From a virus (taxonomy: Duplodnaviria > Heunggongvirae > Uroviricota > Caudoviricetes), in the IMG/VR virus record IMGVR_UViG_3300017747_005082, positions 73,618 through 137,617 of that record: a stretch of 64,000 nucleotides of DNA, one strand, 5' to 3'. The position numbers were made by a program, and so were the translations under genes. The notes beneath the pieces are model-generated. The model was not told the DNA's origin and ran no database searches. It saw only the letters and a program-made list of their open reading frames with translations. Shown here piece by piece: positions 9,614 to 57,591 of this stretch (positions within the stretch are counted from its first letter, which is position 1; the number at the start of each line of letters is the position of its first letter).

Positions 9614-9625
9614 TATTTTTATTTT

Positions 9626-18420: not shown

Positions 18421-18711
18421 CTAATATATTTCATATGTTGTAGTTATTTCAATTACATTGAAGGGTTTATTTAATTTATCATATTCAAGAATTTCTTGAG
18501 GAGTAGCATACCTCCAATCATTAAGACCTTTCACACTGGAGAAAGATTTGTTATAAAGATGAGCTTGGAAACCATTATTTGTAGAACCATTAATATCTTT
18601 ATAAACTTTTAAATAATTATCATCACATCTTTGTTTATAACAAAAATTTAATTTAAAACCTATACTTTCCAATCCTTTTAAGATTACAATATATTCTCCC
18701 TTTTTAAACAT
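18421..18711 (-). CDS. YEIY-family small protein (...TTTYEIY)
   Basis: C-terminal tail; homologous to 27470..27766 (NDWRYA(T/S)PQEI.EYDK). Confidence 0.55.
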   Translation of the reverse strand: MFKKGEYIVILKGLESIGFKLNFCYKQRCDDNYLKVYKDINGSTNNGFQAHLYNKSFSSVKGLNDWRYATPQEILEYDKLNKPFNVIEITTTYEIY

Positions 18712-18974: not shown

Positions 18975-19268
18975 CTAATATATTTCATAATTATTTTTTA
19001 TGATATCTTCATATGGTATAAATTTATCTTCTTTTAAACAAGTATTATACCATAATTTTTCTTCATAAGTGGCTTCCCTTAATTTATATTTACTAGGGTT
19101 TCGATAACTACTACCACTCCAACTTTGAATACTAACACGTAATACACATTTATCACCAATAATATCATCATTATCCCCAATATGAGAAAAGCGGATTAAA
19201 TATTCATATTGAGTTTTATGAAAATAAATTTCTCCAGGAATTAAATCTTCTATTTCAATATATGTCAT
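18975..19268 (-). CDS. YEIY-family small protein (...NNYEIY)
   Basis: C-terminal tail; LIPGEIY and R.AT.EEK.W motifs shared with neighbours. Confidence 0.55.
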   Translation of the reverse strand: MTYIEIEDLIPGEIYFHKTQYEYLIRFSHIGDNDDIIGDKCVLRVSIQSWSGSSYRNPSKYKLREATYEEKLWYNTCLKEDKFIPYEDIIKNNYEIY

Positions 19269-19545
19269 AACTTTCTACTTTAGGTAATTTTTCATAAGAT
19301 ATATAATCATTTATCTCAATACAATAATTTAACCATCTTTTTTCTTCATCAGTAGCTAATCGAATAGTACTTCCACTTTCACTATTTATATAACCTGTAT
19401 CAAAATATGATATTTTTGTATTTATAAAATATTTTCCGCATGCCCTTTTTTCATTATAATGAGTAAATAAAAAAATATATTCATTTTTAGATTCTTCATA
19501 TTTCTGACAATAAATTTCTCCAGGAATTAATTCAGTATATTTCAT
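19255..19545 (-). CDS. YEIY-family small protein (...ESYDIY)
   Basis: C-terminal tail; 14-nt overlap with the next gene, whose ATG lies inside the TATGAC tail codons. Confidence 0.55.
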   Translation of the reverse strand: MKYTELIPGEIYCQKYEESKNEYIFLFTHYNEKRACGKYFINTKISYFDTGYINSESGSTIRLATDEEKRWLNYCIEINDYISYEKLPKVESYDIY

Positions 19546-19547
19546 AA

Positions 19548-19775
19548 TTAATATATTTCGTATGTATTTTCTACTTTTGTTAAATATTCCCTAAAAACCC
19601 ACCAACAATAACCATCTTTTCCTCTTCCATCACCATTATGAAAATGAGAACGATATTCATCAAATTCAATTAATAAATTATTTTCATCATCAAATAATAC
19701 AGTCCCAATTCCACTTCTAATATCACCATTTCGGTATACTCTATCACCAATTTCAATTTTATTAATAGATTTCAT
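19548..19775 (-). CDS. YEIY-family small protein (...NTYEIY)
   Basis: C-terminal tail. Confidence 0.55.
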   Translation of the reverse strand: MKSINKIEIGDRVYRNGDIRSGIGTVLFDDENNLLIEFDEYRSHFHNGDGRGKDGYCWWVFREYLTKVENTYEIY

Positions 19776-19995
19776 ATGAAAATGGATTTATTGGATATCT
19801 TTCATAAAATTCTTCAAATTCTCCATTAGATATTTTACTCCAAAAACTATATCCTTCTTCTGTTCTATTCCAATGAAAATTTTTATCACCTGTTCCAAAA
19901 TCTAGTGATACATTTTCATTGGGAGTATTTCCAGCTTCAATTTGTTTTTCAAATACTTTTTGTTTAATCTCATAGGGTAAATCTTTTACTTGCAT
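19762..19995 (-). CDS. YEIY-family small protein (...FSYEIY)
   Basis: C-terminal tail; promoter motif 20028-20041. Confidence 0.55.
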   Translation of the reverse strand: MQVKDLPYEIKQKVFEKQIEAGNTPNENVSLDFGTGDKNFHWNRTEEGYSFWSKISNGEFEEFYERYPINPFSYEIY

Positions 19996-20063: not shown

Positions 20064-20624
20064 CTAATATATACTATATAAAGATGTTTCTAGATTTTCT
20101 TTTTTAGATATTATTTTTAGATAACTTCCTTTTTTATATTCTTCTCTTACCACAAGATTAGCTCCACATAATATTTGAACCTGATCACCATCTATTCCTG
20201 TTACAATACCTTCATCCCCAAATTCCATTATATAATTTTCATCAAATTTTAATTTAGAAGATGTACAATGACCTCTAACTGTAGCTTGTACTCTATCACC
20301 AATATTATATCCAAATGAAGATGATGAAATAATTCCACATCCTAAAGTTTTAAGAGAAATATCTTCATCTATATTTTCATAAACTTCTAAAAATTTACCT
20401 TTTCTATTTTCGCATCTAGTAACAAATTTATTATCTTTTGTTAAAAGTATTTCAGTATAATATCCTGATACTCCAGTAATAATACCTTTTTCTCCTTCCC
20501 TCATAGGTCTTTCATGTTTAAGGGATGAATTTGTACTACCCCCAGTAACAGTGGCAAATACTTCTTGTCCTATTTTATATCCATGTGTAGATGGTGATAC
20601 CACCCCACTTCCTTTCTTATCCAT
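20064..20624 (-). CDS. YEIY-related protein with internal tandem domain duplication (...LYSIY)
   Basis: Two ~80-aa repeats (G(Y/H)(K/N)IG(Q/D)(E/R)V.ATV.G...SS.LK...); tail Y-S-I-Y. Confidence 0.5.
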   Translation of the reverse strand: MDKKGSGVVSPSTHGYKIGQEVFATVTGGSTNSSLKHERPMREGEKGIITGVSGYYTEILLTKDNKFVTRCENRKGKFLEVYENIDEDISLKTLGCGIISSSSFGYNIGDRVQATVRGHCTSSKLKFDENYIMEFGDEGIVTGIDGDQVQILCGANLVVREEYKKGSYLKIISKKENLETSLYSIY

Positions 20625-21010: not shown

Positions 21011-21463
21011 TCAATTTTTATTTTCATCTTTTACAATTTCAATTAATTTTTCTAGACAAGCATGTCTTGCTTCTTCATAAGAATTTACTACTTGATAAAA
21101 AGGTTTTTCTATATAAGGATGTCCATCAGCAATACCTATCCAATGATTTAATATTTCACCATAACCGCTGTATCCATTTTCTTCACACCCAATTGACCAT
21201 GAATATAGTAATCTATCTCCTATTTTATCAGGATTATATCTTGGAAGTATTTCAGCGTGTAAATTATATTTCTCTCTAAACCAATCAAAAGCCTGTTGCC
21301 ATAGTGGTGCTTTAACAATATCACTTAAAGGTTCTCCAAATGTTCTATTGTTAATACCTCTCATTACAAATTCACCTCTTAGATATTCAGCAAGACAACG
21401 TTCATCAAATCCTAAATCTTTTAGGTCTGAAGATAATGTGGAAGGTACAAATTGTTTTTCCAT
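21011..21463 (-). CDS. MKEQ mosaic-family protein, copy 2 (150 aa); paralog of 51685..52086
   Basis: [12 protein letters not shown](E/K)K and [14 protein letters not shown](V/I)K blocks; about 50 nt of near-identical DNA at the 3' end. Confidence 0.6.
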   Translation of the reverse strand: MEKQFVPSTLSSDLKDLGFDERCLAEYLRGEFVMRGINNRTFGEPLSDIVKAPLWQQAFDWFREKYNLHAEILPRYNPDKIGDRLLYSWSIGCEENGYSGYGEILNHWIGIADGHPYIEKPFYQVVNSYEEARHACLEKLIEIVKDENKN

Positions 21464-21466
21464 AAT

Positions 21467-21745
21467 TTAATATATTTCGTAATTATTTCCTTTTTCATCA
21501 TTTGACCAAATTCCTTTCTCATATATAACAAACCTTCCATAACCAGTACTATATAAGGTATCTGTTTCTTTATTATATCTAAAACTACCTCCAAATATAG
21601 CATATTCTTTTTTATAATTACTACCATCAATTTCTTTTATACTATCTCTTAATGCAATAAAGTTCTCACCTGTTTTAAATCTTTTATATCCTTCTTTATA
21701 TAATGGATGAGAATTATCTATATATGGAAAACCAAAATAACTCAT
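21467..21745 (-). CDS. YEIY-family small protein (...NNYEIY)
   Basis: C-terminal tail. Confidence 0.55.
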   Translation of the reverse strand: MSYFGFPYIDNSHPLYKEGYKRFKTGENFIALRDSIKEIDGSNYKKEYAIFGGSFRYNKETDTLYSTGYGRFVIYEKGIWSNDEKGNNYEIY

Positions 21746-22002: not shown

Positions 22003-22314
22003 TTAGTATATTTCGTAATTATTTTTAATTTGTTTATCAAAATGGATAAATTCATTTTCTTGAATACAATATTTTAACCAATTTATTTCATCCTCAGTAG
22101 CTTTTCTAAGATTTTCTCCTGGTAAATTAAAAAAAGACATACTATTACCTTTAAGAAAACACCTTTTACTTTTAGGAAATATAGCATATAGATAAGTAAT
22201 TAGAGGTCCTTGTATTTCAAAAAATTGAAAAATAATAGGATAAAATTTACTACCAGATAGAAAAGATCCATAATAATATTCATTTTTAATCATTTCATGA
22301 TTCCCTACATCCAT
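22003..22314 (-). CDS. YEIY-family small protein (...NNYEIY)
   Basis: C-terminal tail; LRKATEDEINWLKYCI motif. Confidence 0.55.
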   Translation of the reverse strand: MDVGNHEMIKNEYYYGSFLSGSKFYPIIFQFFEIQGPLITYLYAIFPKSKRCFLKGNSMSFFNLPGENLRKATEDEINWLKYCIQENEFIHFDKQIKNNYEIY

Positions 22315-22316
22315 AA

Positions 22317-22604
22317 CTAATATATTTCGTATGTTTGTGAATTATTCTCTAATCTTTCTAACATTTCTTTAAATGTCAAAGGTATTGCAATATTATCTAT
22401 TGAAAAAGAAAATTGTAATTTATAATCTTTGCGATCCCATCCCCAACCATTTCCTAAAGAATTTTCACTCATTTTCCATCCAACGGAAGAAGGATAACCT
22501 AATTCAATTAATTTTTTTCTAATTATATTTCTTTCTTCTAAGGTAGAATTATCACTAGACATTCCTTCCCCAGTTTTAAATTGATATAGATTATTTTTTA
22601 ACAT
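22317..22604 (-). CDS. YEIY-family small protein (...QTYEIY)
   Basis: C-terminal tail. Confidence 0.55.
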   Translation of the reverse strand: MLKNNLYQFKTGEGMSSDNSTLEERNIIRKKLIELGYPSSVGWKMSENSLGNGWGWDRKDYKLQFSFSIDNIAIPLTFKEMLERLENNSQTYEIY

Positions 22605-23019: not shown

Positions 23020-23352
23020 CTAATAAATATCATAAAGTATATTATTTCCATTATATATCATTATTTCTTCAAGTGTAGCTTCTCTAAAATGATCAAGATG
23101 AGGAAACCAATAATAGTTATTAATATCTGATTTACATAAATTATGAAATTCATAATAAAAATGACCAGGATAAACTTCTGATGGTTGTTTAAGTGTAATT
23201 TTACATATACAATTTTTGAAAGAATTCATACTATGATTGAAATTCTGATTACTAGAAGTTATAACAACTATATCTCCGATATTATATTCTTTTTTCATAA
23301 CTTTTTTATTATTAAGACACATAAATAAGGCCAAATTAAAATTAAGACACAT
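23020..23352 (-). CDS. YEIY-family small protein (...ILYDIY)
   Basis: C-terminal tail. Confidence 0.5.
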   Translation of the reverse strand: MCLNFNLALFMCLNNKKVMKKEYNIGDIVVITSSNQNFNHSMNSFKNCICKITLKQPSEVYPGHFYYEFHNLCKSDINNYYWFPHLDHFREATLEEIMIYNGNNILYDIY

Positions 23353-23452: not shown

Positions 23453-23713
23453 TTAATAAATTTCATAGATATTGTCTTCCAATATTTCTAATATATTTCT
23501 AATTCCTCTATGATATGCAATATTTTCCATTTCTGTAGCTAATCTCCAAGTATCTACATTATCAGTAACTTTTCCTGATTTATACCTGAAAGAAAATTTT
23601 GTAAAATCATCAACTACAAACATTTCCCCAATATTTCTAGCATCATCTACATATTTTAAAGAAACTAAAATATCACCTTCTTGATATTTATCCCAAAGTT
23701 TAATAGATTTCAT
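23453..23713 (-). CDS. YEIY-family small protein (...NIYEIY)
   Basis: C-terminal tail; WRLATEMENIAYH motif. Confidence 0.55.
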   Translation of the reverse strand: MKSIKLWDKYQEGDILVSLKYVDDARNIGEMFVVDDFTKFSFRYKSGKVTDNVDTWRLATEMENIAYHRGIRNILEILEDNIYEIY

Positions 23714-23734
23714 ATAATTCGTTTTTAAATTCTT

Positions 23735-24181
23735 CTAATGTTTTAAATCTCCACATACTCCTACTTTTTTTATTATTTTTAAATGGTTGGATATATAAGT
23801 ATCTTGGGAAAATAAAGTATTACAAACTAAAAATTCTGAATTTTTAGGGATAATACATTCATAAATAGAATAATTTGTAATCTTTTTATGTTGAATAAAC
23901 CTATATAAACTTGGTAAACTTATAAAAGAAGAATACCCTCCTTTTATATTTACCCCATAATTATCACGACTCCAAATACAAATTGTTCTTTCTTTTTGAG
24001 GAATGTTAATTAAATATAAATTATTAGATGTAGATTTAATTATTCCAGGAATTTCTGTTTCTTCAAATAACTTATAACATATAATATTTTTCCTATTTAT
24101 TTTTACTTTTAATTTGGGAGTTATATTAAATATTCTTTGGAATAAATTCTTTTTAATATCTTCATTAAGTATTTTTTTCAT
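23735..24181 (-). CDS. hypothetical protein (148 aa)
   Basis: ORF track. Confidence 0.45.
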   Translation of the reverse strand: MKKILNEDIKKNLFQRIFNITPKLKVKINRKNIICYKLFEETEIPGIIKSTSNNLYLINIPQKERTICIWSRDNYGVNIKGGYSSFISLPSLYRFIQHKKITNYSIYECIIPKNSEFLVCNTLFSQDTYISNHLKIIKKVGVCGDLKH

Positions 24182-24183
24182 AA

Positions 24184-24435
24184 TTAATAAATTTCGTATA
24201 TATTTGTATCCTCTTCAAAATGTTTTACTGCAAAATATCTAACTCCGTTTTCACCCTTAGGCCATAATATTATATCATCCCCTCCAAAATCTTCTAAGGT
24301 ATCAATAATAAACTTTTTACCAGGGAAATAACCTGCTCCAGCCCTTTTAAGTTGGTCTTTATTTTGAGACAATTGATCTAACTCAATACATATAACAGTA
24401 TCTCCTTTTTTGAAATTATGTTTCATGATTTTCAA
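24184..24435 (-). CDS. YEIY-family small protein (...NIYEIY)
   Basis: C-terminal tail; terminator-promoter cassette 24444-24475 upstream. Confidence 0.55.
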   Translation of the reverse strand: MKIMKHNFKKGDTVICIELDQLSQNKDQLKRAGAGYFPGKKFIIDTLEDFGGDDIILWPKGENGVRYFAVKHFEEDTNIYEIY

Positions 24436-24593: not shown

Positions 24594-24857
24594 TTAATAA
24601 ATTTCATATATTTTATTATAATTTATAATATCTACTTCTTCAAAAAATGATTTATTAAAATTACCCTTATATCTATTTCCTTCAGGGAAAAAATAAAAAT
24701 CACTATTATAAGTTCCTTTTATATTTGCCCAAGTTATATCTCCTACTTTCATATTTTCAGGAAAATGTGATTTATAATCTCCTTCATATGGTTTAATTAA
24801 TTTTATCCATATAATTTCTCCTTTTGGAGGATAATATTTATATTCTTGATTATTCAT
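24594..24857 (-). CDS. YEIY-family small protein (...KIYEIY)
   Basis: C-terminal tail. Confidence 0.55.
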   Translation of the reverse strand: MNNQEYKYYPPKGEIIWIKLIKPYEGDYKSHFPENMKVGDITWANIKGTYNSDFYFFPEGNRYKGNFNKSFFEEVDIINYNKIYEIY

Positions 24858-25961: not shown

Positions 25962-26237
25962 TTATTTAATTATTATAGTTCCTTCTTTTATACCATATGG
26001 AGACTTCTCTTGAAAATAATTTATTCCTGTTATAGTATCTTTGGTTAGAATCCATAATGAAGTTTCTTTCCAAGTTACTGTTATTAAAGTATGATTTTTC
26101 TTTAATTTTACCTCTTCAGTCCCTCCCCAATTTCTTGCTCTTTCATTATCAGTACAACTGTATATAAATAATATACTTAATAATATTAAAAAAATATTAA
26201 TATATTTCATAATTTGAAATTTTTGTTGTTTTTTCAA
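25962..26237 (-). CDS. small secreted/membrane-anchored protein (91 aa)
   Basis: N-terminal hydrophobic segment ending ...IYSC. Confidence 0.4.
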   Translation of the reverse strand: MKKQQKFQIMKYINIFLILLSILFIYSCTDNERARNWGGTEEVKLKKNHTLITVTWKETSLWILTKDTITGINYFQEKSPYGIKEGTIIIK

Positions 26238-26478
26238 TTTTGCAGGGATTTGAATTTTCTTGTATCATTTTTTCAAATTCCTCTCCAGATATCATTAATT
26301 CAATATAAGGTTCAGAACTATCCATTTCCAAACACATCACTTTTCCCTCTATTACTCCATAGTAAGAGCTTAATAAAGCATTCCAATTAAAAGAATGGTT
26401 ATAATTTTTATTTATAAAATTTCTTACATATTGGAAATTCTTATCACCAAAACTCACTAAAAAATTATTCTTATCCAT
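26197..26478 (-). CDS. YEIY-family small protein (...SNYEIY)
   Basis: C-terminal tail. Confidence 0.55.
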   Translation of the reverse strand: MDKNNFLVSFGDKNFQYVRNFINKNYNHSFNWNALLSSYYGVIEGKVMCLEMDSSEPYIELMISGEEFEKMIQENSNPCKIEKTTKISNYEIY

Positions 26479-26480
26479 AT

Positions 26481-26705
26481 TTAATATATTTCATAATTAT
26501 TTTCAGGTAAAGATATTATACTATAATGAATTTGATTATTTAAATATGCACAAATTTCAATAATTGTATGATCATAATATACAGTTCCGTCTTTTTTTAA
26601 CAGATCAACTGTTTCTAAGTTTTGTGATTTTGGAAATAAAATTTCATAAGTTTCATGTTTATTTCCAAATTTTATACCTATAATTTCTTGTTGAGTAGTA
26701 TACAT
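26481..26705 (-). CDS. YEIY-family small protein (...NNYEIY)
   Basis: C-terminal tail; promoter motif 26724-26737. Confidence 0.55.
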   Translation of the reverse strand: MYTTQQEIIGIKFGNKHETYEILFPKSQNLETVDLLKKDGTVYYDHTIIEICAYLNNQIHYSIISLPENNYEIY

Positions 26706-26744: not shown

Positions 26745-27278
26745 TTATAAATCCAAATAAGATTTGATAATTTTTACTTGTTTTCTTAGTTTTGTTTCGT
26801 ATTTTTTTGTTATCGCATATCTTCTTTTGGAACAGTTAACAAAATTATTGAGGAGTTTTGTTAATGAAGAACAGGATAAATAAGAGGATGCTATTATAAA
26901 ATAATAGGCTTCAACCCCCTCTTTTATTGAATTATATTTTACGTAACCTTTTTTACTATTAATAGAATATGGATTATTTTTCTTTTTTCCTACTCCTTCA
27001 TTTCCTAATGATGTTTCAATTATTGCTTGTGATATTGCCAATTCATAAGGAACAATAATATCAAGTGAATCATAAACCTTTATTGCATTATCATACAAAT
27101 CTTCTGCTGTTATTTGTGATTTTGGATAATGTTCTAATATTCTTGCAGAATTATAATAATAGGTACTATCAATTTGACTATAAGTTTTAAATGAACAAAA
27201 CAATATAAATAATAACAATATTTTTCTCATATTAATAAATTTCGTAAATATTCTCTTTTTGGGAAACCAATCCCTCAT
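26745..27278 (-). CDS. secreted glucosaminidase-like peptidoglycan hydrolase (177 aa)
   Basis: Signal peptide MRKILLLFILFCSFKTYSQ; ISQAIIETSLGNEG resembles the FlgJ/glucosaminidase AQAALESGWG motif. Confidence 0.4.
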   Translation of the reverse strand: MRDWFPKKRIFTKFINMRKILLLFILFCSFKTYSQIDSTYYYNSARILEHYPKSQITAEDLYDNAIKVYDSLDIIVPYELAISQAIIETSLGNEGVGKKKNNPYSINSKKGYVKYNSIKEGVEAYYFIIASSYLSCSSLTKLLNNFVNCSKRRYAITKKYETKLRKQVKIIKSYLDL

Positions 27279-27492
27279 TATCTATAAATAATATTATATC
27301 TGTTGTAACATGCCAATTTCTTTGATATTCCCTTCCAGGTACAAGAACTTGAATATTATAAACACAATCATTAAAACTTTCCATATTAGATATTATACCA
27401 ATATCCCCAATCTGATTACAGCTATATGAATCATTTTTTATAATTTTAACTTTATCTCCTATTTTATATTCAATATATCTCATATCTGTCAT
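27232..27492 (-). CDS. YEIY-family small protein (...ENIYEIY)
   Basis: C-terminal tail. Confidence 0.55.
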   Translation of the reverse strand: MTDMRYIEYKIGDKVKIIKNDSYSCNQIGDIGIISNMESFNDCVYNIQVLVPGREYQRNWHVTTDIILFIDNEGLVSQKENIYEIY

Positions 27493-27766
27493 AACTGGTA
27501 GTTATTTTAGTTACATCAAAAGGTCTGTTATTTTTATCATATTCTTGGATTTCTTGGGGAGAGGCGTATCTCCAATCATTTCTTTGGGATTTATCAAATG
27601 GAAGTATACTCCATCCATTTTCTCCTCCTTTAGCATCGTTTTCTACAGTTAAATAACTACTATCATAAGATATTTTATAACAAAAATTTATAGGAAAATT
27701 TACATCCTTTGGATGTTTGGAAGATAAAAGTACTATATAATCTCCTTTTTCAAATTTATTTTTCAT
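27470..27766 (-). CDS. YEIY-family small protein (...DRYEIY)
   Basis: C-terminal tail; homolog of 18421..18711. Confidence 0.55.
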   Translation of the reverse strand: MKNKFEKGDYIVLLSSKHPKDVNFPINFCYKISYDSSYLTVENDAKGGENGWSILPFDKSQRNDWRYASPQEIQEYDKNNRPFDVTKITTSYDRYEIY

Positions 27767-28044: not shown

Positions 28045-28332
28045 TTAATATATTTCGTAATTTTCCATAATATTCCCATTATCCCCGTAAAGAATTAAAT
28101 TTTTTAAATCTTGAAAAGAATAAAATTCACGTATTTCAGATAAATTACAAGATCCCCAAACTATACCAGTTTTAGTATCCCAAAACATAAACACAAAATC
28201 AGTTTTATCCCCATAACAATATGTAGGTTGAGCACAATGATAATTTTTTATCATTAATTCCCAAATCTCTCTTTTTTCTGATGGAGTTGCTTTTGGATCT
28301 AAACCATCACCTTCTTTAAATTGGTATTTCAT
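28045..28332 (-). CDS. YEIY-family small protein (...ENYEIY)
   Basis: C-terminal tail. Confidence 0.55.
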   Translation of the reverse strand: MKYQFKEGDGLDPKATPSEKREIWELMIKNYHCAQPTYCYGDKTDFVFMFWDTKTGIVWGSCNLSEIREFYSFQDLKNLILYGDNGNIMENYEIY

Positions 28333-28334: not shown

Positions 28335-28634
28335 TTAATATATTTCGTATGTTTTGTTAATTTTATCAAATGTTTTATTAATTGATTCTTCAGAAATATA
28401 TTTTCCTTTAGCCTCACAAGACTCTAACCAAAATTTTTCAAATTCACTAGATTGATATATTTTATTCCAACTATGAGTTGCATCTTTTTCAAATTTTTTC
28501 CTAACAATTCGTGATTCATAATGTAAAGTACTGTTATATTTTGCTCTCCATATAAAATATTCATTATTGTCTATTGAAGTATAAATTTCTCCTTTTCTTA
28601 TTTCTCCTACAGTTATTTTAATTCTATTTACCAT
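28335..28634 (-). CDS. YEIY-family small protein (...KTYEIY)
   Basis: C-terminal tail. Confidence 0.55.
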   Translation of the reverse strand: MVNRIKITVGEIRKGEIYTSIDNNEYFIWRAKYNSTLHYESRIVRKKFEKDATHSWNKIYQSSEFEKFWLESCEAKGKYISEESINKTFDKINKTYEIY

Positions 28635-28873
28635 ATATCATAAAAATTATCTTGTTCTAAATCAATCTCTAAATCTATAGGCCTATATGAATTATTTGAA
28701 CCATCTTCCCAATCCACATAATAATAAAAATAGTCAGGTTTTAATTTATAATGCTTTTCAGATACTTTTCTTACTACTCCTACCATTGGAACTCCATTTC
28801 CATCTAATCCTTGATCTTTATATTCTGACTTCAGATTTATCCTAACTTTTTGTCCTTGTTGTAAATATTTCAT
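28628..28873 (-). CDS. YEIY-related small protein (...FYDIW)
   Basis: Variant tail Y-D-I-W. Confidence 0.45.
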   Translation of the reverse strand: MKYLQQGQKVRINLKSEYKDQGLDGNGVPMVGVVRKVSEKHYKLKPDYFYYYVDWEDGSNNSYRPIDLEIDLEQDNFYDIW

Positions 28874-29480: not shown

Positions 29481-29729
29481 TTAATATATTTGATATATAT
29501 CTATATTAAATTTTGAAATATTAGAAGTATTTATTAAAGTAGTTAAATCCCATCCATAATCTCCTGCTTTCATTGCTATATAATCTTCATCATTATATAG
29601 ATCTTCTATTATACATTCAAATGGAAAAATACATTCATCTAAAGGATTATTTTGACATAATCTAGAAGCCCAATGGGTAGGTTTTATTCCAATAAGGATT
29701 TTATCTCCAATTTTAAATTGATGTTTCAT
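29481..29729 (-). CDS. YEIY-related small protein (...IYQIY); N-terminus MKHQFKIGDKILI like 35126..35377
   Basis: Variant tail; shared N-terminal block; promoter motif 29750-29763. Confidence 0.5.
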   Translation of the reverse strand: MKHQFKIGDKILIGIKPTHWASRLCQNNPLDECIFPFECIIEDLYNDEDYIAMKAGDYGWDLTTLINTSNISKFNIDIYQIY

Positions 29730-32781: not shown

Positions 32782-33844
32782 TATTTGAAATATTTTTTAT
32801 AAGGAAAACAAATTAAACCAATAACACTTAATGTAGAAGTAATAAACCAAAGAGTAGGATATGGACTTCTAAATACCATCATATTTAAAATAACCAATAT
32901 AACTATCATTATTATAAAAATAATAATCCTTACAGCTAATTTTTTCATACTATTATAGTACTTTTAAGAATTTAGTTTCTTTAACATTTACTACAGTAAA
33001 ATCCAAATTATCACCTTCATCAGTGAACATTTTATTTACTTTAGTTTCAGCATCTAAACAAGAAATAGCATCTACTAAATATTTCTCTTTAGTAACTTGA
33101 ATTTTACCTTTGTCATTTTCTATTTTAGTGTTGACATTCACTTCATAAAATTTATTCATATTATATTTGATTTTTTAATTATTTTAAATATATGAAAAAA
33201 TATTTAAGATTCCAAATCTAAAATTTGTTTTTCTAAATCTCTAGCAGAAACTGCCAATTCATAATATTGGAAAGTACATGCCCAATCTTTTATTTCTTTA
33301 AGCATATCTAACCAATTATCAATATAAACTGACATATATTTCTTTTCTTTAGTTTGGAATGTTACTTCAAATATATCAATTGTAGCTAATTTTTTATTTT
33401 TATCTAGGTGTTTTTGTAATTCAACTAGAGTATATTCATATAATTCTTTTTTATTTGAGTTATAGTAATCTACTAGTTCATCTTCATCAAATACTTTAAT
33501 TTTTCGCATTCTTTCTTGTTTTAATTTGTGGACGATCTTCAGGGAAATGATTATAATGTTCTTCTTCTAATTGATATTGAAGGGATTCCATTAATTCTTT
33601 ATCGGCTTTAGTAATTCTAGGTTTTCTTTCTTGATTTTTGGGATTATATTTATTTTCTAATTCTTGAAGTTGTTTTATTAATCTATCAGATTTATTATAA
33701 ACGGGATCATGAATTTCCACAAATAAAGGAGATCCTTTGGAAATATTCTTATCCCAAACCCATTTATATGTTATTCCATTATGGTCTTGAAAATTTTGTG
33801 TATATGATAAAATTGGTGTAATATTATCACTAGGTCTTCCTTGT

Positions 33845-34168
33845 TTAGTAGATTTCATAAGACAAATTTTTAATTCTTGAAAATGGAATAAATCTTCCTA
33901 ATTCAATACATTCTAGTAACCATTGTTTTTCTTCCCAAGAAGCTATTTCAAATCTTCTGTCTTTAGAAGCATAACACCAACTTCTATTATGATAAAATAT
34001 TCTTTCTGAGGATATAAAAGTCGCGTTTCCTCTTTGATTAAACTTATCATTATCTCCATTATTAGGGATAAGAACTTTTCCAATCATCCAAAAATTTTCA
34101 CCTTCACTTGGATCAGTTATTTTATAAATTTCACCTTCAACTAATTTATGTAATTTCATATATTCCAT
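33845..34168 (-). CDS. YEIY-family small protein (...LSYEIY)
   Basis: C-terminal tail; SWEEKQWLLECIE motif. Confidence 0.55.
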   Translation of the reverse strand: MEYMKLHKLVEGEIYKITDPSEGENFWMIGKVLIPNNGDNDKFNQRGNATFISSERIFYHNRSWCYASKDRRFEIASWEEKQWLLECIELGRFIPFSRIKNLSYEIY

Positions 34169-34892: not shown

Positions 34893-35123
34893 TTAATAAA
34901 TTTCTTCCTCTTTTTCTTTACCACAATTCCTGCATTTATAATAATTAATATTCCAAGAACCTCTTATTCCAAATCCTAAATCTCCAGTCCTACCTTTACT
35001 ATTATAATTAAAATACCAATCATGTGTTTTATTTTTAATACATGGTTCTTCTTTTAAACTTATAAATATCCCAATTATGGATATTATAAATAAAATTAGA
35101 GGTCCTATTATTAATATTTCCAT
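34893..35123 (-). CDS. small membrane-anchored protein with a partial tail (...EEEIY)
   Basis: N-terminal TM segment; EIY terminus. Confidence 0.4.
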   Translation of the reverse strand: MEILIIGPLILFIISIIGIFISLKEEPCIKNKTHDWYFNYNSKGRTGDLGFGIRGSWNINYYKCRNCGKEKEEEIY

Positions 35124-35125: not shown

Positions 35126-35377
35126 TTAATAAATTTCATACATCATTAAATTATTTTCATAAAGTTCTATATCGTTTATGCTAAAAGAACTTGCTCTTTC
35201 ATCTAAACGAGTTCCTAATACCACTTCATCATGTCTGGTAATATCTGAAATAAAACAAAAATCTTGGTCTTCAGGTAAATATCGTATTAGGGCACAAGCT
35301 GTTAGAGAAATTTCAGTGTCTTTTGTTTTTTGAGTTGGAATTTTTACTTTGTCCCCAATTTTAAATTGATGTTCCAT
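35126..35377 (-). CDS. YEIY-family small protein (...MMYEIY)
   Basis: C-terminal tail; MEHQFKIGDKVKI N-terminus. Confidence 0.55.
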   Translation of the reverse strand: MEHQFKIGDKVKIPTQKTKDTEISLTACALIRYLPEDQDFCFISDITRHDEVVLGTRLDERASSFSINDIELYENNLMMYEIY

Positions 35378-35379
35378 AT

Positions 35380-35595
35380 TTAATATATTTCGTATATTTC
35401 GTAATTATTTTCTTGAACTAATTCATCAAAAGGAATCCATACAGTAGTATCTCCCATTAATATAAAAGAATTATTTTTAATATCTCTTATTTCTCTATTT
35501 ATTAGAACTGTTTTTCTAAACTTCCCACGACTAGAATTAACCATTTCATTTTTACAATCTTCATCTTTAATAATATATCCAATTTTATATTTCAT
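35380..35595 (-). CDS. YEIY-family small protein with a duplicated tail (...NNYEIYEIY)
   Basis: Tandem duplication of the TACGAAATA unit at the 3' end. Confidence 0.55.
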   Translation of the reverse strand: MKYKIGYIIKDEDCKNEMVNSSRGKFRKTVLINREIRDIKNNSFILMGDTTVWIPFDELVQENNYEIYEIY

Positions 35596-35616: not shown

Positions 35617-35647
35617 GTAAACATACGAAAGGCCTCTTAAGAGGCCT
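35617..35647 (-). promoter_or_regulatory. terminator-promoter cassette (agtaaacatacgaa + AGGCCTCTTAAGAGGCCT)
   Basis: Near-identical to 24444-24475 and 61313-61344; upstream of 35380..35595. Confidence 0.55.
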
Positions 35648-39634: not shown

Positions 39635-40399
39635 TTATCTACCTTTAAATTCTGGATATAATTCTTTACCTGAATCTGATTGCCAAAATTCTTTAGTTTT
39701 AATATCCATAATAGATACATAACCATGCCATCCACCACCTGTATCAAGATTCCATATATTAGCAGCATTCATAGGTTCATTTTTTTTCCAAAATTGAGTT
39801 GAAGTATGTCCTATAAATACTTCTTTAAAATCCCCTACCATTTTAAATTTAGGTCTCCAACCTGGAGTATATTCTGGTAAATCTAAATTAGTCATAGTAC
39901 CATAAGATAATGCTTGACTCCATAAATCTCTATCCCAATAAAATATAAATTCTTCCTGATCTTCTAATTTTTCATGTCTATTAAATCCACCATGTACAAA
40001 TAGATTATTTTCATCATCTATATAATATGGTAATTGGTTTTTGAAGAATTCAACATGAGTATTTGGAATATGTCCATATATTATTGTATTTTCACCTGGA
40101 TATTTCTCAAGATAAGATAATGCTGTTGCTTTTGCACCTTGAGACCATCCAGAACCGTGCCTTCCAGAACATAACCAATCATTAAACCATTCGTCATGGT
40201 TACCTTTAATAGGAATCAAATTTTTTATTTTAAGTAATTCTTCAATAACTTCAAATGATTGACTATGACCATCTACTACATCTCCTAATGAAATGAGAGT
40301 ATCATTTTTATAATCAAAATTACTTCTCTCTAAGGCTTGTATTAAACCTTTATAATTTCCGTGGATATCTCCTATTACTAATATTCTATTTGTTTTCAT
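39635..40399 (-). CDS. calcineurin-like metallophosphoesterase / PPP-family phosphatase (254 aa)
   Basis: VIGDIHGNY, GDVVDGH and GNHDE motifs. Confidence 0.7.
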   Translation of the reverse strand: MKTNRILVIGDIHGNYKGLIQALERSNFDYKNDTLISLGDVVDGHSQSFEVIEELLKIKNLIPIKGNHDEWFNDWLCSGRHGSGWSQGAKATALSYLEKYPGENTIIYGHIPNTHVEFFKNQLPYYIDDENNLFVHGGFNRHEKLEDQEEFIFYWDRDLWSQALSYGTMTNLDLPEYTPGWRPKFKMVGDFKEVFIGHTSTQFWKKNEPMNAANIWNLDTGGGWHGYVSIMDIKTKEFWQSDSGKELYPEFKGR

Positions 40400-40572: not shown

Positions 40573-41463
40573 TTACTTATTTGCATATAATATTTGTTTA
40601 TATAGTTCTAAATGTTGTTTAGCAACAACATTTCTTTTAAATCTTTCTATTTTTGGAGGATATTTTAATTGAACATCTAAAATATTTCCTTGATAATCAA
40701 CTTTATAGATATAACTAGGTATTCCACACATCCATCCCTCAATCGTAGTTCTTCCACCAATTCCTACGGTAAAATCTGCGTATTTAACGTGGATCTCTGT
40801 ACCATAACATGGATCTATAATTTCAATTAGTTCATTATTAAAATTACGTTTACTTCGAGATATAATAGTTAATCTGTGATTATTTTCAATACAATTTTGA
40901 ACGGCATGTTCAATCATATGGGAACGTAATGGATCATTTATCTCTCCAATTAAAATACCAGTTGTCTTTGCTCTTTTAGAAAATGATCTACCTAAATTAG
41001 GTTTAAATCTTTCTTCATTAATTGGATTATAAATTAAAGAAATATCTTTTGTTTTTATTCTATATTGATTTTTTAAACATCTGTAAATATCAGGTTGGAC
41101 TGCTATATAATGTTTTATAGAATCATGTTTTACTGCATCTTCACTCCTTAAAGCTGAATGGATAATAGAAATTTTAGGAATTGATGGATATTTTTGACAT
41201 AAAATAGAATTTGGTAGTGGTTGAGATGCAATAATTAAATCAAAAGAGATGTTATAATTTGATATTAATTCTTCTAATCCAATACATTTTATTCCTTGGT
41301 TTAATAATTTATCAAATAAATGAAAATCTAAATTTGGTTTGGTATAAGTAGCAAAATATATATCTAATTCCTTAAATTTAGATAAACCCATTAATAGCTC
41401 ATAGTGATATAATTCACTACCACCATAGGCGTTCATATTTTGACAACTAATTAAAATTTTCAT
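40573..41463 (-). CDS. glycosyltransferase-like protein (296 aa)
   Basis: Rossmann-like MKILISCQNMNAYGGSE N-terminus typical of GT-B enzymes; weak. Confidence 0.35.
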   Translation of the reverse strand: MKILISCQNMNAYGGSELYHYELLMGLSKFKELDIYFATYTKPNLDFHLFDKLLNQGIKCIGLEELISNYNISFDLIIASQPLPNSILCQKYPSIPKISIIHSALRSEDAVKHDSIKHYIAVQPDIYRCLKNQYRIKTKDISLIYNPINEERFKPNLGRSFSKRAKTTGILIGEINDPLRSHMIEHAVQNCIENNHRLTIISRSKRNFNNELIEIIDPCYGTEIHVKYADFTVGIGGRTTIEGWMCGIPSYIYKVDYQGNILDVQLKYPPKIERFKRNVVAKQHLELYKQILYANK

Positions 41464-47974: not shown

Positions 47975-48949
47975 TTAAAATATCTCAAATGGGTTTCTCC
48001 ATTTTGCAGGTGTTTTACCTTTTGGACATAATTTATCATCTTCTTTATAAGGACAAAACTGACAACTAGAAGGACTAATATGTTTTTTAAATGGATCCGT
48101 TTTTATTTTTCCAAATTGATCAAAGGCAGAATGAGCAAAATTTTCTAATAATGTAAAAGCTTTCTTAAGTTTTACTTTACCCGAAGCTGGAATAAATTCT
48201 TGTATTCTTTTTTCTGGGAAATCACCATCTTCCTTTATTTTTCTTTTTAATATCATAAATTTGATACTAATATTGTCAATAGGAAAGTTAAATTGTTCTG
48301 AAAATAATTTTTTATAAAGAACTAATTGTGATAATTTATTTTCATCTTTTTTGGATTTATCATACCAAGCTCTTGTGGATGATTTTAAATCTATAATTTC
48401 TACTGTATTAGTAGGTTCATGATATAAAACTAAGTCTAATGCTCCCTTATATAAAACATTAGGAAGAATATCATAAGATACAGGGATTTCACAACCAAGT
48501 AAAAACCAACCTTTTTTGGAAAAATATTCACCTCTTTTTCTTTTAAAATATCTTATTATTTCTAATCCATCAAGACAATATTCATCTAATTCTGCTGGGT
48601 TAGAAAAATGGATTTTGTTATTTTTATTATATTGGACTACATATTCTTGCTTTAATTTTAATTTAAATAAACTTTCTAAGTCTATTCTATCAGCTTCTGC
48701 TCCACTTTTTTCATAAAAAGTAGTTAAATAATGTTGTATTACTTCATGTAACACAATCCCAAATAATAAGTTTATATTATAATTAGGTATTTTATGGCCA
48801 TCTCGATAAGTTAATCCCCATCGAAACTCACAACCATTAAATATTGTCATTTGAGTATGACTTATAACTTTTTGTTTGGAAAAATCAATAAATGGTGGTT
48901 TGTAGGCTTTTACTTGTTTTACTAGGGCTGGTATTTTTTTCTTGGCCAT
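47975..48949 (-). CDS. PD-(D/E)xK nuclease, Cas4/RecB-like, with Cys cluster (324 aa)
   Basis: D...EIIDLKSS (D-x(n)-E-x-K) core; one N-terminal and three C-terminal Cys (CQFCPYKEDDKLC), as in Cas4/AddB Fe-S nucleases. Confidence 0.5.
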   Translation of the reverse strand: MAKKKIPALVKQVKAYKPPFIDFSKQKVISHTQMTIFNGCEFRWGLTYRDGHKIPNYNINLLFGIVLHEVIQHYLTTFYEKSGAEADRIDLESLFKLKLKQEYVVQYNKNNKIHFSNPAELDEYCLDGLEIIRYFKRKRGEYFSKKGWFLLGCEIPVSYDILPNVLYKGALDLVLYHEPTNTVEIIDLKSSTRAWYDKSKKDENKLSQLVLYKKLFSEQFNFPIDNISIKFMILKRKIKEDGDFPEKRIQEFIPASGKVKLKKAFTLLENFAHSAFDQFGKIKTDPFKKHISPSSCQFCPYKEDDKLCPKGKTPAKWRNPFEIF

Positions 48950-49170: not shown

Positions 49171-49431
49171 TTAATATATTTGATAATTTTCTTTTTGTAC
49201 TACTACAAACCCTGTTTTTGGAGTATCACAATAATTTATAATGTCTCCATTTTCTTCATTACATTCTTTTAAAGATTCTTCAATATCTTCTATATCAATG
49301 ACCTTAGGTAAACCAGATTTAGCAAACCCTAATACTCTAGCAATTACAATTCCTTTTACATAAGGTGGATTATAAGCAATTAAATCACCTACTGAAGGAA
49401 TTTGATTCAACATATCTTTTCTTATATTCAT
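49171..49431 (-). CDS. YEIY-related small protein (...ENYQIY)
   Basis: Variant tail. Confidence 0.45.
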   Translation of the reverse strand: MNIRKDMLNQIPSVGDLIAYNPPYVKGIVIARVLGFAKSGLPKVIDIEDIEESLKECNEENGDIINYCDTPKTGFVVVQKENYQIY

Positions 49432-50541: not shown

Positions 50542-50784
50542 TTACTTTTCGGCATCTTGTGATAATAATAATTCTTTTAATTCTGGCGGCAATCCTTCCT
50601 CACATATTTCTCCTGTTTCAGGATCATAAAATACATCAATAGGTATAACTGCATCTATAGGACCTCCTGTTAAAAATCTACTTGCTTTTCTTAAAATTAC
50701 TCCTGTTTGCCAAATTTTTCCTCCAGAAGGAGTTAAAATTGGAGTTGTTTTTCTAATATCAAGGTTTATTTGTGGTTTTTCCAT
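50542..50784 (-). CDS. small protein straight after the clamp loader (80 aa); possible clamp-loader accessory subunit
   Basis: Position only (start overlaps clamp-loader stop), analogous to T4 44-62. Confidence 0.25.
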   Translation of the reverse strand: MEKPQINLDIRKTTPILTPSGGKIWQTGVILRKASRFLTGGPIDAVIPIDVFYDPETGEICEEGLPPELKELLLSQDAEK

Positions 50785-51692
50785 TATTTATTATTTAAAA
50801 TTTTACTAATTAGTGCTATAAATTGTATTTCTCTATCAGGAGCAGTAACAGCTTTATATTGAGATTCAGCAATCATCCATGGTATTGTAATATTATCTGA
50901 ATATTCATCTAGTTTATCAAATAATAATCTATATAATTCAGAATATTCTTTTAAATCTAAATCTGCTACTATTTGTCTTATTTTATTAAAATCTTTTGGG
51001 TTTTTACCCTTTAATAATTTAATTATCTCTTCTCCTTCTTTTTCAATATTTTTAGAAGTATCTGTTATTATTAACTTACCTGTTTTGGAAAATGATTGTA
51101 ATTTAATTAAACATTGTCTAGTATCAGGGTATGTTAAATTCACTACTTTAGCTAGTTCAGTATTTTCAAATTTAATATTTTCTTGTTCTAAGATATATTT
51201 ACATTTAGCTGCTAATTCTGATTTTGTAGGAGGTTTTAATTCATATCGTTCTAATCTACTTTGAATAGGTTCTAACATCCTCTCAAAATAATTACAAGTA
51301 AATATAAAACGAGTAGTACTACTAAAAGTCTCAATAATATTTCTTAAAGCAGATTGTGCTGCTGGTGTTAAAAAATCTGCTTCATCTAATACTATGATTT
51401 TCAAAGTCATAAAACTAGCTGTAGAAGCAAATGATTTAACTTTTTCTCTAATAGTATCAATTCCATTTTCATCAGAAGCATTTATATAAAGACTATCACA
51501 GGGAATAGAAGAAGTAATTACTTTCGCTGCAGTTGTTTTCCCTGATCCTGCTCTACCACTTAATATAATATTAGGAATAGAACCTTCTTCAATCCATTTT
51601 TGTAAATCTGCTCTAAATAATGGGTTTCCTATATATCCCTCGAGACTTGTTGGAGAGTATTTTGCCCAATATAAATTATGTTCGTTATTCAT
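50784..51692 (-). CDS. clamp-loader AAA+ ATPase (RFC small-subunit / T4 gp44-like, 302 aa)
   Basis: Walker [10 protein letters not shown], Walker [12 protein letters not shown]-type QSRLERY motif. Confidence 0.75.
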
Positions 51693-52086
51693 TTCCTTTT
51701 ATAATTTCAATTAATTTTTCTAGACAAGCTTGTCTTGCTTCTTCATAAATTTGTTTAGTTTTTCCTAAATCATCATTATCAACAAGTATATTAGAATTTT
51801 TTTCACTTCCACATATAGTATAAAAATAATAATCAAAATTATCACCTATATAATCTTTTCGTTCTATATTAGAATCTATTAATTTATTTTTTCTAAACCA
51901 ATCAAAGGCCTGTTGCCATAGTGGTGCTAATATCCAATAAATTTCTTTTTCAGGCTGTTTTTTAAACTCCCCAAATATTTTGATAATTTCTTTAGTTTTA
52001 GTATGATAAGTGGACAAACAAGGTTCATCAAAACCTAAATTTTTAAGTTCTAGTGCTAATTCATAAGGTATAAATTGTTCTTTCAT
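51685..52086 (-). CDS. MKEQ mosaic-family protein, copy 3 (133 aa)
   Basis: Paralog of 21011..21463 with near-identical DNA patches. Confidence 0.6.
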
Positions 52087-52323: not shown

Positions 52324-53949
52324 TTAATATAATGAAGGTTGTTCTTTTTGTTCTTCTCTTTTTTCAATAACTAAATTATTTGTTGTTAAAATAGTTCCAG
52401 CTACTGAAGAAGCATTTAGTAATGCATATCTAGTTACTTTTACAGGATCTAAAATACCTTTAGTTCTCATATTAACAATAGATTCAGAAACTAAATCATA
52501 TCCATTCCAAATATCAGGTTTTTTAGTTAAATCAGATATTAATTTTTTAATATCTTCACTATCATAACCAGCATTTTCAAGAATTCTAGTAAATGGAGCA
52601 GAACAAGCATCATATACAATTTGCTGTCCTAATTTAATATCTTTATCTATTTCATTAAAAATGATTCCTTCTCTAGCATATAATAAAGCAGAACCTCCTC
52701 CAGGTAATACTCCTTCTTCTATGGCAGCACGAGTAGCATGTAATGCATCATCTACCCTATCTTTTTTCTCTTCAATTTCTACTTCAGAATTACCCCCAAT
52801 AGAAACTACAGCAACTCCTCCTACCATTCTTCCTAAACGTTCTTGAAGTTTTTCTTTCTCGAATGGAGATGATGCTTTATCAATTTGAGTTTTAATTTCC
52901 TCAGTTCTCTTTTCTATTTCTGCTGGTTCACATTCTCCATCTACTATTGTAGTATTTTCTTTAGTAATAGTTACAGTACGAGCATTACCTAAATATTTAT
53001 TCCATTCATTTGGATTTATTTTATCCAATTTCATTCCTTTTTCAGTAGATATAACTTGTCCTCCTGTTATAATTGCTAAATCTTCTAACATAGATAATCT
53101 TCTATCTCCAAAATCAGGAGCTTTGACAGCAACTGAATCAACAACTCCTCTAACTTTATTTACAATTAAAGTTGATAAAGCTTCTCCGTCAATATCCTCA
53201 GCAATAACTAATAATGATCTTTGTTCAATATTAGCTTTATTCATAACTCCAACTAAATCTTGGGCTGATGTTATTCTTCCACTATATATAAGAATTAATG
53301 GTTTTTCTAAAGTAGCTTGCATTGTATTGTTATCAGTAACAAAATATGGAGATTTATAACCTCTGTCAAACTGCATTCCTTCTACAACATCTAAACTGGT
53401 TTCTCCAAATTTAGATTTTTCAACCGAAATTATACCTTCTCTACCTACTTTATCTATAGCTGTAGAAATTAATGTTCCGATTTCAGGATCATTATTACCA
53501 GATATAGTTGCTACTTCTTGGATTTGGGAATTTTCTGTTATATCTGCTTTATTTTCTTTCAGTTTTTCAATAACTTGTTTAACAGCTAAATCAATACCTT
53601 TCTTAACAGAAACAGAATTAGATCCTTTTTCCATAACTTTGAAACCTTCTTTTATAATACTAGTAGCTAGTAATGTTGATGTCGTAGTACCATCACCTGC
53701 TTTATTATTAGTATCTTCCGATACTTTTTTAACAAGTTGTGCACCCATATCTTCAATTTGATCTTCCAATTCAATAAAACCTTTCGCTACAGAAACACCA
53801 TCCTTAGTAGTTTTAATTTTACCATATTGGTCTTTAAGCAGAACTGTTCTTCCATAGGGACCTAATGTATCAGATACTGCATTATTTAATTTCTCTATTC
53901 CTCTTAATAAACCGGCTTGTAATTTTTCTCCGTTTTCTGTTTGTGTCAT
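52324..53949 (-). CDS. groEL: chaperonin GroEL / Cpn60 (541 aa)
   Basis: Collinear GroEL blocks: TKDGVSVAK, AGDGTTTSTLLA, VVEGMQFDRGY.SPYF, AVKAPDFGDRR, GGVAVVSIGG, DALHATRAAIEEGV.PGGG, GILDPVKVTR. Confidence 0.9.
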   Translation of the reverse strand: MTQTENGEKLQAGLLRGIEKLNNAVSDTLGPYGRTVLLKDQYGKIKTTKDGVSVAKGFIELEDQIEDMGAQLVKKVSEDTNNKAGDGTTTSTLLATSIIKEGFKVMEKGSNSVSVKKGIDLAVKQVIEKLKENKADITENSQIQEVATISGNNDPEIGTLISTAIDKVGREGIISVEKSKFGETSLDVVEGMQFDRGYKSPYFVTDNNTMQATLEKPLILIYSGRITSAQDLVGVMNKANIEQRSLLVIAEDIDGEALSTLIVNKVRGVVDSVAVKAPDFGDRRLSMLEDLAIITGGQVISTEKGMKLDKINPNEWNKYLGNARTVTITKENTTIVDGECEPAEIEKRTEEIKTQIDKASSPFEKEKLQERLGRMVGGVAVVSIGGNSEVEIEEKKDRVDDALHATRAAIEEGVLPGGGSALLYAREGIIFNEIDKDIKLGQQIVYDACSAPFTRILENAGYDSEDIKKLISDLTKKPDIWNGYDLVSESIVNMRTKGILDPVKVTRYALLNASSVAGTILTTNNLVIEKREEQKEQPSLY

Positions 53950-56523: not shown

Positions 56524-56533
56524 ACTTTTATTT

Positions 56534-56923: not shown

Positions 56924-56931
56924 ATTAATTG

Positions 56932-57588: not shown

Positions 57589-57591
57589 AAT

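Follow-up and report, generated by a model that had tools for sequence, protein, structure and literature searches.

A conserved C-terminal YEIY peptide on many small proteins of an uncultured AT-rich phage: a probable docking tag whose codons lie in the start region of the next gene

Here we describe a short C-terminal peptide, Tyr-Glu-Ile-Tyr (YEIY), that recurs at the ends of many small proteins of an uncultured phage (Caudoviricetes) and that we consider to be, probably, a docking tag. The DNA analysed, hereafter the window, is a stretch of 64,000 nucleotides (nt) covering positions 73,618 to 137,617 of the IMG/VR record IMGVR_UViG_3300017747_005082. Its G+C content is 25%, and nearly all of its genes are closely packed on the minus strand. 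The window carries a T4-type replication module, which comprises a family B DNA polymerase split in two, a clamp loader of the gp44 type, a weak gp62-like match, a PD-(D/E)XK nuclease, an ATP-dependent ligase, phage GroES and GroEL and several glycosyltransferases. Its genes have no Shine-Dalgarno sequence, start in a purine-TT-ATG context and show a depletion of AUG around their starts, features that fit a Bacteroidia-type host, probably one of the Flavobacteriia. The closest cultured relative is Flavobacterium phage immuto, which has GroES/GroEL, thioredoxin and DUF4494 genes in common with the window and whose nuclease is 39.5% identical; a megablast search of 18 kb against GenBank phages gave no match.

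The DNA pattern TAYGARATHTAYTRR, which encodes the peptide, matches 22 times in the window, always on the minus (coding) strand, where 0.14 matches are expected from shuffles. YEIY forms the C-terminus of 20 of the 149 open reading frames (ORFs) and -IY that of 29, and internal YEIY occurs nowhere in the ~19,800 amino acids (aa) encoded. The two matches that do not fall at the ends of called genes lie at 19532, in a gene start region (ATGAAATATAC), and at 23700, at the end of an 18-codon remnant ORF. We refer to the terminal peptide and its codons as the tail; all tails and tail genes lie on the minus strand. Gene 35380-35595 ends AAT TAC GAA ATA TAC GAA ATA TAT TAA (AAT TACGAAATA TACGAAATA TAT TAA), which encodes N-Y-E-I-Y-E-I-Y-stop, the protein end being NNYEIYEIY. 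Direct reading bears out the tandem duplication that a preliminary description of this DNA had reported here: the 9-nt unit TACGAAATA stands twice, perfect and in frame, at 35395-35403 and 35386-35394 (together 35386-35403), adding YEI and keeping the terminal YEIY (TAC GAA ATA TAT and the stop TAA, 35380-35394). The stop is followed by AT and then by the ATG (35375-35377) of the next gene, 35126-35377, which thus begins 2 nt past the stop with the stop's last purine at -3. The same description had given the tail a fixed coding, TA(C/T) GA(A/C) ATA TAT TA(A/G); the string is real, but the coding is more variable, with GAG, GAT or GAC, ATT or ATC, TAC for the last Tyr and TGA stops also in use. 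A full-text search of a paper collection for the word YEIY returned no relevant paper.

A profile built from five paralogues of the window was searched against 1.84 billion representative proteins, of which 760 matched. Among the best 150 of these 760, 78 were stand-alone proteins of ~100 aa; 34 of these terminate in YEIY, and close variants stand at the ends of most of the rest. The remaining 72 were long multi-domain proteins that hold the same domain internally, with no tail and with no internal YEIY in 37.6 thousand aa. The domain of the 18975-19268 family is present in 1-4 copies in such multi-domain proteins of 300-1200 aa (P0005-P0020 and other long matches), none of them tailed, and these proteins also hold KVGDKV (SH3-like) and YPVGT modules and often have basic C-termini. 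Pfam gave no match for ten tail proteins and ten multi-domain homologues, and a word-indexed search with one tail protein matched only itself. Scanning viral contigs for the DNA pattern uncovered several other AT-rich contigs with tail-gene arrays, and in a related locus reached through a protein match, and hence unbiased for the DNA pattern, the tail stands on 34 of 64 ORFs. No tails were found in the first 50 kb of the cultured phage immuto.

In the relatives the motif takes the extended form E-P-[Q/N/T]-Y-E-I-Y, with frequencies of 62% for E(-7), 71% for P(-6), 85% for [QNT](-5), and 100%, 96%, 94% and 97% for the Y, E, I and Y that follow. Position -5 is Q in 41 of 103 cases, N in 32 and T in 15; in the window, Q is not among the six commonest residues at this position. 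We discounted a possible likeness between 'ENNY-' and the ssrA tags of Bacteroidia, since the relatives carry EPQ there.

The tail is carried by proteins of diverse sequence. When 19 tail-bearing families were stripped of their tails and compared profile against profile with hhalign, one of 171 pairs was related and 170 were unrelated, and by this comparison, made with shallow profiles, the tail sits on at least 18 sequence families without detectable homology. It is also kept in the database homologues of a second family, the SH3-like one. The linker before the tail varies in length, with a 10-residue insertion in 26197-26478. An AlphaFold2 model of 18975-19268, with a predicted local distance difference test score (pLDDT) of 82, shows a small Sm/Tudor-like beta-barrel with two helices, in which the last 7 residues have a pLDDT of ~57 and no secondary structure. 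Similar ends are found on other kinds of protein: the PD-(D/E)XK nuclease ends in NPFEIF and most of its close homologues in PF[EDSTQ]I[FY], and the looser tails EEIY and DDIY occur on two proteins whose sequences suggest that they cross the membrane.

What is under selection in the tail is its amino acids and not its nucleotides. Information content is at background level immediately outside the four codons and the stop, and every codon position of the tail, stop included, varies synonymously, with GAA/GAG and ATA/ATT/ATC used at background frequency. In 45 homologous pairs from the window and related phages, the protein bodies are 28% identical and the tails 91% identical in aa (16 of 180 differ), and synonymous differences are found in 66 of 164 (40%) tail codons. 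Random draws from the tail codon frequencies would by our own estimate differ at a level of ~0.39, so that the synonymous sites are saturated. The replacements that do occur are conservative (YDIY, YQIY, YSIY, YDIW, YNVF, FEIF and HELW), and the codons used for them differ. The tail is equally intact in the 25 of 96 pooled tails without a nearby downstream start, and individual families retain it across all junction classes. Taken together, the fixed peptide, the saturated synonymous sites and the conservative variants argue for selection at the protein level, on a motif that is strictly terminal, sits on families without detectable homology and is kept with or without a following gene. Apart from an excess of TAC at Tyr, no nucleotide conservation beyond the encoded amino acids was found; extreme AT codon bias would make four such codons resemble a single DNA string.

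The claim that the tail codons lie within the initiation region of the next gene was borne out. Stop-2 nt-ATG follows the tail in 35 of the 71 pooled junctions with a nearby downstream start, against 3 of ~120 non-tail junctions in the window, and is therefore strongly over-represented; the junctions cited in the preliminary description at 19545, 21463, 24181, 26478, 35123 and 35377 were all correct on re-reading. The positions first given for the 15 nt relative to the next start, -4 to -18, need correction: where the spacer has its usual length of 2 nt, they are -3 to -17. Among the pooled junctions are 17 at which the ATG within T-ATG-AA is itself the start of the next gene, giving a 14-nt overlap that is truly dual-coded. 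Free-standing starts and starts after non-tail genes share the same (A/G)(A/G)TT-ATG context, including TAGTTATG, so the spacing merely places the purine of the stop codon at -3. The folding energy of the initiation region is equally low at free-standing starts and at non-tail and tail junctions, the regions after tails being no less structured. Since context and folding are the same without tails, the conserved peptide codons are not needed for initiation. Non-tail genes are packed equally tightly, and stop-TT-ATG packing would by itself place the tail in the next gene's initiation region. Overlaps of 14 nt between start and stop are common between non-tail genes too (40386-40399, 40573-40586, 33496-33509, 22591-22604 and 50542-50555), and this overlap length therefore seems to be favoured genome-wide.

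Initiation constraints do act on the codon of the first Tyr, where TAC is far above background. The first tail Tyr is TAC in 10 of 26 tails of the window against a background of 6.8% (p=4e-6), with TAC in 6 of 74 internal Tyr-Glu pairs, and in 36 of 68 tails of the relatives against 14.5% (p=1e-13). Comparing first and last Tyr within the same tails, the discordant cases divide 34:6 (p=8e-6), and where the next codon does not begin with G the first Tyr is TAC in 0 of 4. The ATG/GAT ratio is 0.50 upstream of starts versus 0.95 mid-gene, and AUG depletion around starts has been reported for Bacteroidetes (PMC6847099); a first Tyr encoded by TAC fits such depletion, since T-AUG-AA then loses its AUG. 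Bacteroidia-type ribosomes that choose starts without a Shine-Dalgarno sequence would thus see the AUG of TAT-GAA either removed, by TAC, or reused as the next start. The trend towards more first-Tyr TAC where a downstream start is near was not significant (35/19 with a near start versus 11/13 with none, p=0.14). At the 3' ends of non-tail genes there was no avoidance of NAT-G at the synonymous level (28 T, 2 C, like the interior), and about half of the ATGs concerned are, on a count by hand, genuine starts of downstream genes. In the pooled tails, the last Tyr is TAC in 14 of 40 cases after ATA versus 5 of 39 after ATT, which resembles avoidance of an ATATAT run and may be related to slippage such as the 9-nt duplication.

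The tails follow one another along an array of small genes. Directly after gene 35380-35595, the SH3-like protein 35126-35377 ends in the tail TAT GAA ATT TAT TAA (35126-35140), which is followed by the TT-ATG of 34893-35123. The tail TAT GAA ATC TAC TAA of 33845-34168 (33845-33859) contains the ATG (33856-33858) that starts the backbone gene 33496-33858 (MKST...), a 14-nt dual-coded overlap. An ATG within the tail likewise opens the next tail gene (MRYIEYKIGD...) in 27470-27766 (tail TATGAGATATATTGA, 27470-27484), and it starts 25962-26210 (MKYINIF...) in the tail of 26197-26478 (26197-26211) and 19548-19775 (MKSINK...) in that of 19762-19995 (19762-19776). The case already described, in which the next ATG lies within TATGAC tail codons at 19268, is correct: the variant YDIY (TATGACATATATTGA) of 19255-19545 (19255-19269) contains the start of 18975-19268. 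Further tails end the genes 28335-28634 (TACGAAATATATTAA, 28335-28349), 28045-28332 (28045-28059, with the next ATG directly after), 27232-27492 (27232-27246), 26481-26705 (26481-26495), 24184-24426 (24184-24198), 23453-23713 (23453-23467), 22317-22604 (22317-22331, with a TAG-TT-ATG junction), 22003-22314 (22003-22017), 21467-21745 (21467-21481), 19548-19775 (19548-19562), 18975-19268 (18975-18989, the protein modelled with AlphaFold2), 18421-18711 (18421-18435) and 16822-17067 (16822-16836), the last with a paralogue, 17080-17322, that ends in YNVF. The tail of 24594-24857 (24594-24608) precedes a spacer of 158-167 nt, with a hairpin and a promoter-like motif and with no coupled gene, and it is retained there, as had been noted.

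Variant tails are YDIY (TAT GAT ATT TAT TAG) of 23020-23352 (23020-23034) and YSIY (TAT AGT ATA TAT TAG) of the two-domain protein 20064-20624 (20064-20078), both followed by a promoter-like motif; YQIY of 29481-29729 (29481-29495); YDIW of 28628-28873 (28628-28642); YDIY of 8154-8360 (8154-8168); and, outside the main array, YQIY of 49171-49431 (49171-49185). The tail-like NPFEIF end of the PD-(D/E)XK nuclease 47975-48949 occupies 47975-47989.

The tail genes behave as cassettes. The window and three relatives have their backbone genes in collinear order, with intervening tail genes that differ in family and number, and the same tail family occupies different positions in different phages. 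Whichever cassette precedes it, the backbone gene 33496-33858 starts within that cassette's tail, and four different cassettes were seen in this position. The 18-codon remnant ORF of the window (23700-23756), which reads MWRFKTLEEFKNELYEIY followed by a stop, overlaps with its tail the start of 23453-23713; in the related locus L017, at ~6431 on the minus strand, a non-genic remnant NEPQYEIY-stop stands directly after a promoter and overlaps the start of the next gene. Both remnants give the impression that a deletion has left no more than the final codons of the upstream cassette. Pairs of junctions showed no extended tracts of identity, the longest being 22 nt and typical pairs sharing 5-11 nt. 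Recombination may occur at the tail, and the shared end may incidentally act as microhomology in cassette exchange.

These junctions and cassettes bear on three readings in which the DNA or the nascent chain, and not the finished protein, is the target of selection. The preliminary description took the 15-nt string for a dual-coded RNA element, conserved because it drives translational coupling or re-initiation of the next gene. In the junction type seen most often, the tail does lie at -3 to -17 relative to the next start, stop-2 nt-ATG is enriched after tails and 17 downstream genes start at an in-tail ATG; the two remnants keep tail DNA before the downstream gene after loss of the upstream cassette, and the TAC bias at the first Tyr shows that initiation constrains these codons. 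Both kinds of contrary evidence that the description itself had named were found, however: 25 of 96 tails are intact without a nearby start, as is that of the nuclease, which precedes a 36-nt spacer, and the synonymous sites are saturated (changes in 66 of 164 codons) under fixed amino acids, with conservative substitutions made through unrelated codons. Moreover, starts without tails share the (A/G)(A/G)TT-ATG context, the low upstream information and the low folding energy, and non-tail genes are as tightly spaced, so we regard coupling as a very improbable cause of the conservation. Hardly credible, in our judgement, is the related idea that nascent YEIY slows termination or recycling inside the ribosome and so favours re-initiation at the neighbouring start; it would account for both the aa-level conservation and the stereotyped junction, but operon ends and the nuclease retain the tail, equally tight non-tail junctions do without it, and the upstream E-P-Q/N/T and the exchange of aromatic for aromatic better suit a binding motif. 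The string might instead be kept as a recombination joint, a microhomology of ~15-24 nt at cassette ends that serves swapping and duplication. That variation between the collinear backbone genes resides in the tail genes, that their families shift position, that 33496-33858 starts within the tails of four cassettes, and that remnants (23700-23756 and NEPQYEIY-stop in L017) and a 9-nt slippage duplication exist would all be expected of such a joint. Shared identity, however, does not exceed 22 nt and is typically 5-11 nt, third positions are not homogenised, the pattern of aa conservation is left unexplained, and at this divergence any gene boundary would mimic a breakpoint; we therefore consider this reading improbable.

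Two other readings place the function in the protein. The tail could be an intrinsic structural or self-assembly element of one ancient superfamily of paralogues, acting as a last strand or docking to a subunit or paralogue with no separate receptor. Several of the families resemble small beta-barrels that have in common a GD/GEIY start and a helix motif, R-x-AT-x-EE; Sm-like folds frequently assemble into rings; and all these genes sit in tandem arrays, as is typical of duplication. We nonetheless judge it rather unlikely, given that the tail is predicted to be flexible and unpaired on a linker of varying length, that the same domain occurs without a tail in multi-domain proteins, that 170 of 171 family pairs lack profile similarity, that tail-like ends are found on the PD-(D/E)XK nuclease and, as looser EEIY and DDIY, on two putative membrane proteins, and that the domains have no conserved pocket residues. 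The tail could also be a timing degron or a tether to a protease adaptor, a special case of a docking motif, in which an AAA+ protease or its adaptor recognises YEIY-COOH and removes early proteins later or receives their targets. C-terminal degrons and tethering peptides, such as ssrA and the XB peptide of SspB, are well established, and the tail is strictly C-terminal, flexible, portable and present on many accessory early-type proteins. It does not, however, resemble known C-terminal degron sequences, and a similar tail on a nuclease of replication or repair fits a replisome hub better, which makes a degron unlikely.

We favour, as the probable explanation, that YEIY-COOH is a C-terminal short linear docking motif, an "address tag" for one common receptor. 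The conserved 15 nt would then be the coding sequence of a conserved peptide, Tyr-Glu-Ile-Tyr-COOH, with the general form aromatic-[E/D/Q/S]-[I/V]-aromatic at the very C-terminus. The peptide would be displayed on a short variable linker behind many small domains (65-190 aa), several of them predicted small beta-barrels, in proteins whose genes form variable, apparently early arrays in a clade of large, AT-rich, uncultured phages that replicate with a module of the T4 type. Its free C-terminus would bind the shared candidate receptor, and the features at the nucleotide level would be secondary to the peptide tag. By analogy, the most likely class of receptor, and our leading guess, is a hub such as a sliding clamp; a protease adaptor or a virion-loading site are possible alternatives. 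A wider version, which we put forward only tentatively, is that a clade-wide address code, (EP[QNT])YEIY-COOH, which in some places ends as many as half of the small accessory genes, tags dozens of unrelated fast-evolving domains and, loosely, a nuclease for one receptor. The codons would double as a universal joint and, by the 14-nt overlap, as the dual-coded start of the next gene, and the peptide tag would have evolved together with the initiation region and the cassette border, the three forming a single module.

The analogy with clamps comes from T4, whose gp43, gp55 and gp33, though unrelated, bind the clamp through C-terminal epitopes, hydrophobic and acidic, that are interchangeable and sit on linkers that diverge (PMC2988020). 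Like these epitopes, the tail is a short hydrophobic and acidic peptide at the extreme C-terminus, placed on a variable flexible linker in unrelated proteins of one phage, and a DNA nuclease bears a similar tail here. More broadly, clamp-binding peptides include the bacterial QL[SD]LF motifs and PIP boxes, and the Q-Y-E-I-Y form in relatives fits an arrangement Q-hydrophobic-[S/D]-hydrophobic-aromatic. Unlike the T4 epitopes, YEIY is found on dozens of small accessory proteins and not on a few replication or transcription factors; it differs from the phage's own polymerase tail, DYFNFS, and Q is not conserved in the window. In one relative the nuclease tail does resemble that of the polymerase (KFTFY and KFFTFI in L122), which we count in favour of the hub analogy. 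In some relatives the C-termini of the two enzymes vary together: L124 has TFAFFQPT with KFFTFE, and the window and L125 have PFEIF with DYF[NS]F[SD]. L123 has a nuclease without a tail and a polymerase that terminates in MFFNI. The flanking sequences of three nuclease homologues stop short of their small-gene arrays.

Other known systems offer partial parallels. The C-terminal pentapeptide NWETF of chemoreceptors is a tether for CheR and CheB. It resembles the tail as an aromatic-Glu-x-aromatic-COOH motif on a flexible linker that acts purely as a docking handle, and differs from it in that the phage has no CheR/CheB context and the viral motif is spread over many protein families. Coupling through stop/start overlaps (ATGA, TAATG) and the initiation of Bacteroidia without a Shine-Dalgarno sequence (PMC6847099) are matched by the tight junctions, the stop-derived purine at -3, the AUG depletion and the 14-nt overlaps. 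Unlike the tail, however, these features apply to all genes of the phage without any YEIY codons, and they explain the TAC bias and the spacing but not the conservation of the motif. T4-type phages also have mobile regulatory cassettes of a promoter and a stem-loop (PeSL) in hyperplastic regions. As in those regions, small early genes with fast turnover lie between backbone genes here, border repeats could mediate shuffling, and hairpin-promoter units are present; unlike the PeSL cassettes, the repeat lies within coding sequence and is conserved as a peptide, and no recombination tracts were found.

Several observations weigh against the docking interpretation, or against parts of it. The family profiles are shallow, so that a very remote common ancestry is possible, and several families are plausibly all small beta-barrels. 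A second model, of the SH3-like family, had a pLDDT of 58 and was too poor to use. The polymerase tails, DYFNFS in the window and DYFSFD in L125, bear only a loose likeness to YEIY, in contrast to the T4 clamp epitopes, which closely resemble one another; the polymerase tails and YEIY/FEIF share aromatics at i and i+3 and an acidic character and are otherwise unlike. A sliding-clamp gene was sought in the window and none was recognised, a 241-aa ORF beside the polymerase having no detectable similarity. The first Tyr is TAC in 11 of 24 tails that have no nearby downstream start, and the last Tyr shows a milder but significant TAC enrichment in the relatives (21 of 66), so avoidance of AUG does not explain the whole of the codon bias.

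Several further features of the window were recorded. A promoter-like motif, TTCGTATATTTAC(A), is present in ~15 copies on the coding strand, 20-45 nt upstream of ATGs, and also in related loci. It lies at 35617-35647 (minus strand) and, located by TTCGTA, at 61326, 30401, 29763, 24457, 23003, 20041, 18158, 17931, 16519, 12278, 8391, 7327, 5100 and 2725; often it stands directly 3' of a GC hairpin, AGGCCTCTTAAGAGGCCT, forming terminator-promoter units. The resemblance of the tail to this motif that had been remarked upon is limited to the hexamer TACGAA/TTCGTA, and the flanks differ. The family B DNA polymerase (region 55618-59445, minus strand) is split into the ORFs 57592-59445 and 55618-56523, between which lie an HNH endonuclease (56932-57588) and a 129-aa ORF (56534-56923); in L122-L124 the polymerase is also in two ORFs, without the HNH gene. 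The 129-aa ORF is one of four paralogues on the minus strand (902-1468, 21011-21463, 51685-52086 and 56534-56923) that all begin MKEQ[FL]I.[FY]E.A, so that one of them adjoins the HNH gene in the split polymerase; homologues are present in L017, L020 and L027. The GroES-like (53965-54258) and GroEL-like (52324-53949) genes, also on the minus strand, lie within the replication module and are kept in relatives and in Flavobacterium phage immuto. Rfam gives a tRNA match of 59 nt and 43.8 bits at 9556-9614 (minus strand), in a 726-nt gap between ORFs, where ARAGORN makes no call. One protein of the window sits on a 180.5-kb contig, and JGI sample 3300017707 and run SRR10520816 are the sources of two identical 3.7-kb contigs. 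The loci L001 and L002 are 100% identical to the window and therefore yield no polymorphism data.

The small early genes of large phages are mostly without known function and offer no handle for study. If the docking interpretation is true, a shared terminal tag marks many such orphan proteins as clients of one receptor, which would provide a single experimental entry point to all of them. In addition, the locus shows cleanly, in a natural setting, how initiation without a Shine-Dalgarno sequence shapes the choice of upstream codons, through removal or reuse of an AUG, and how, in an AT-rich genome, a "DNA string" that is conserved can be purely a signal at the protein level.

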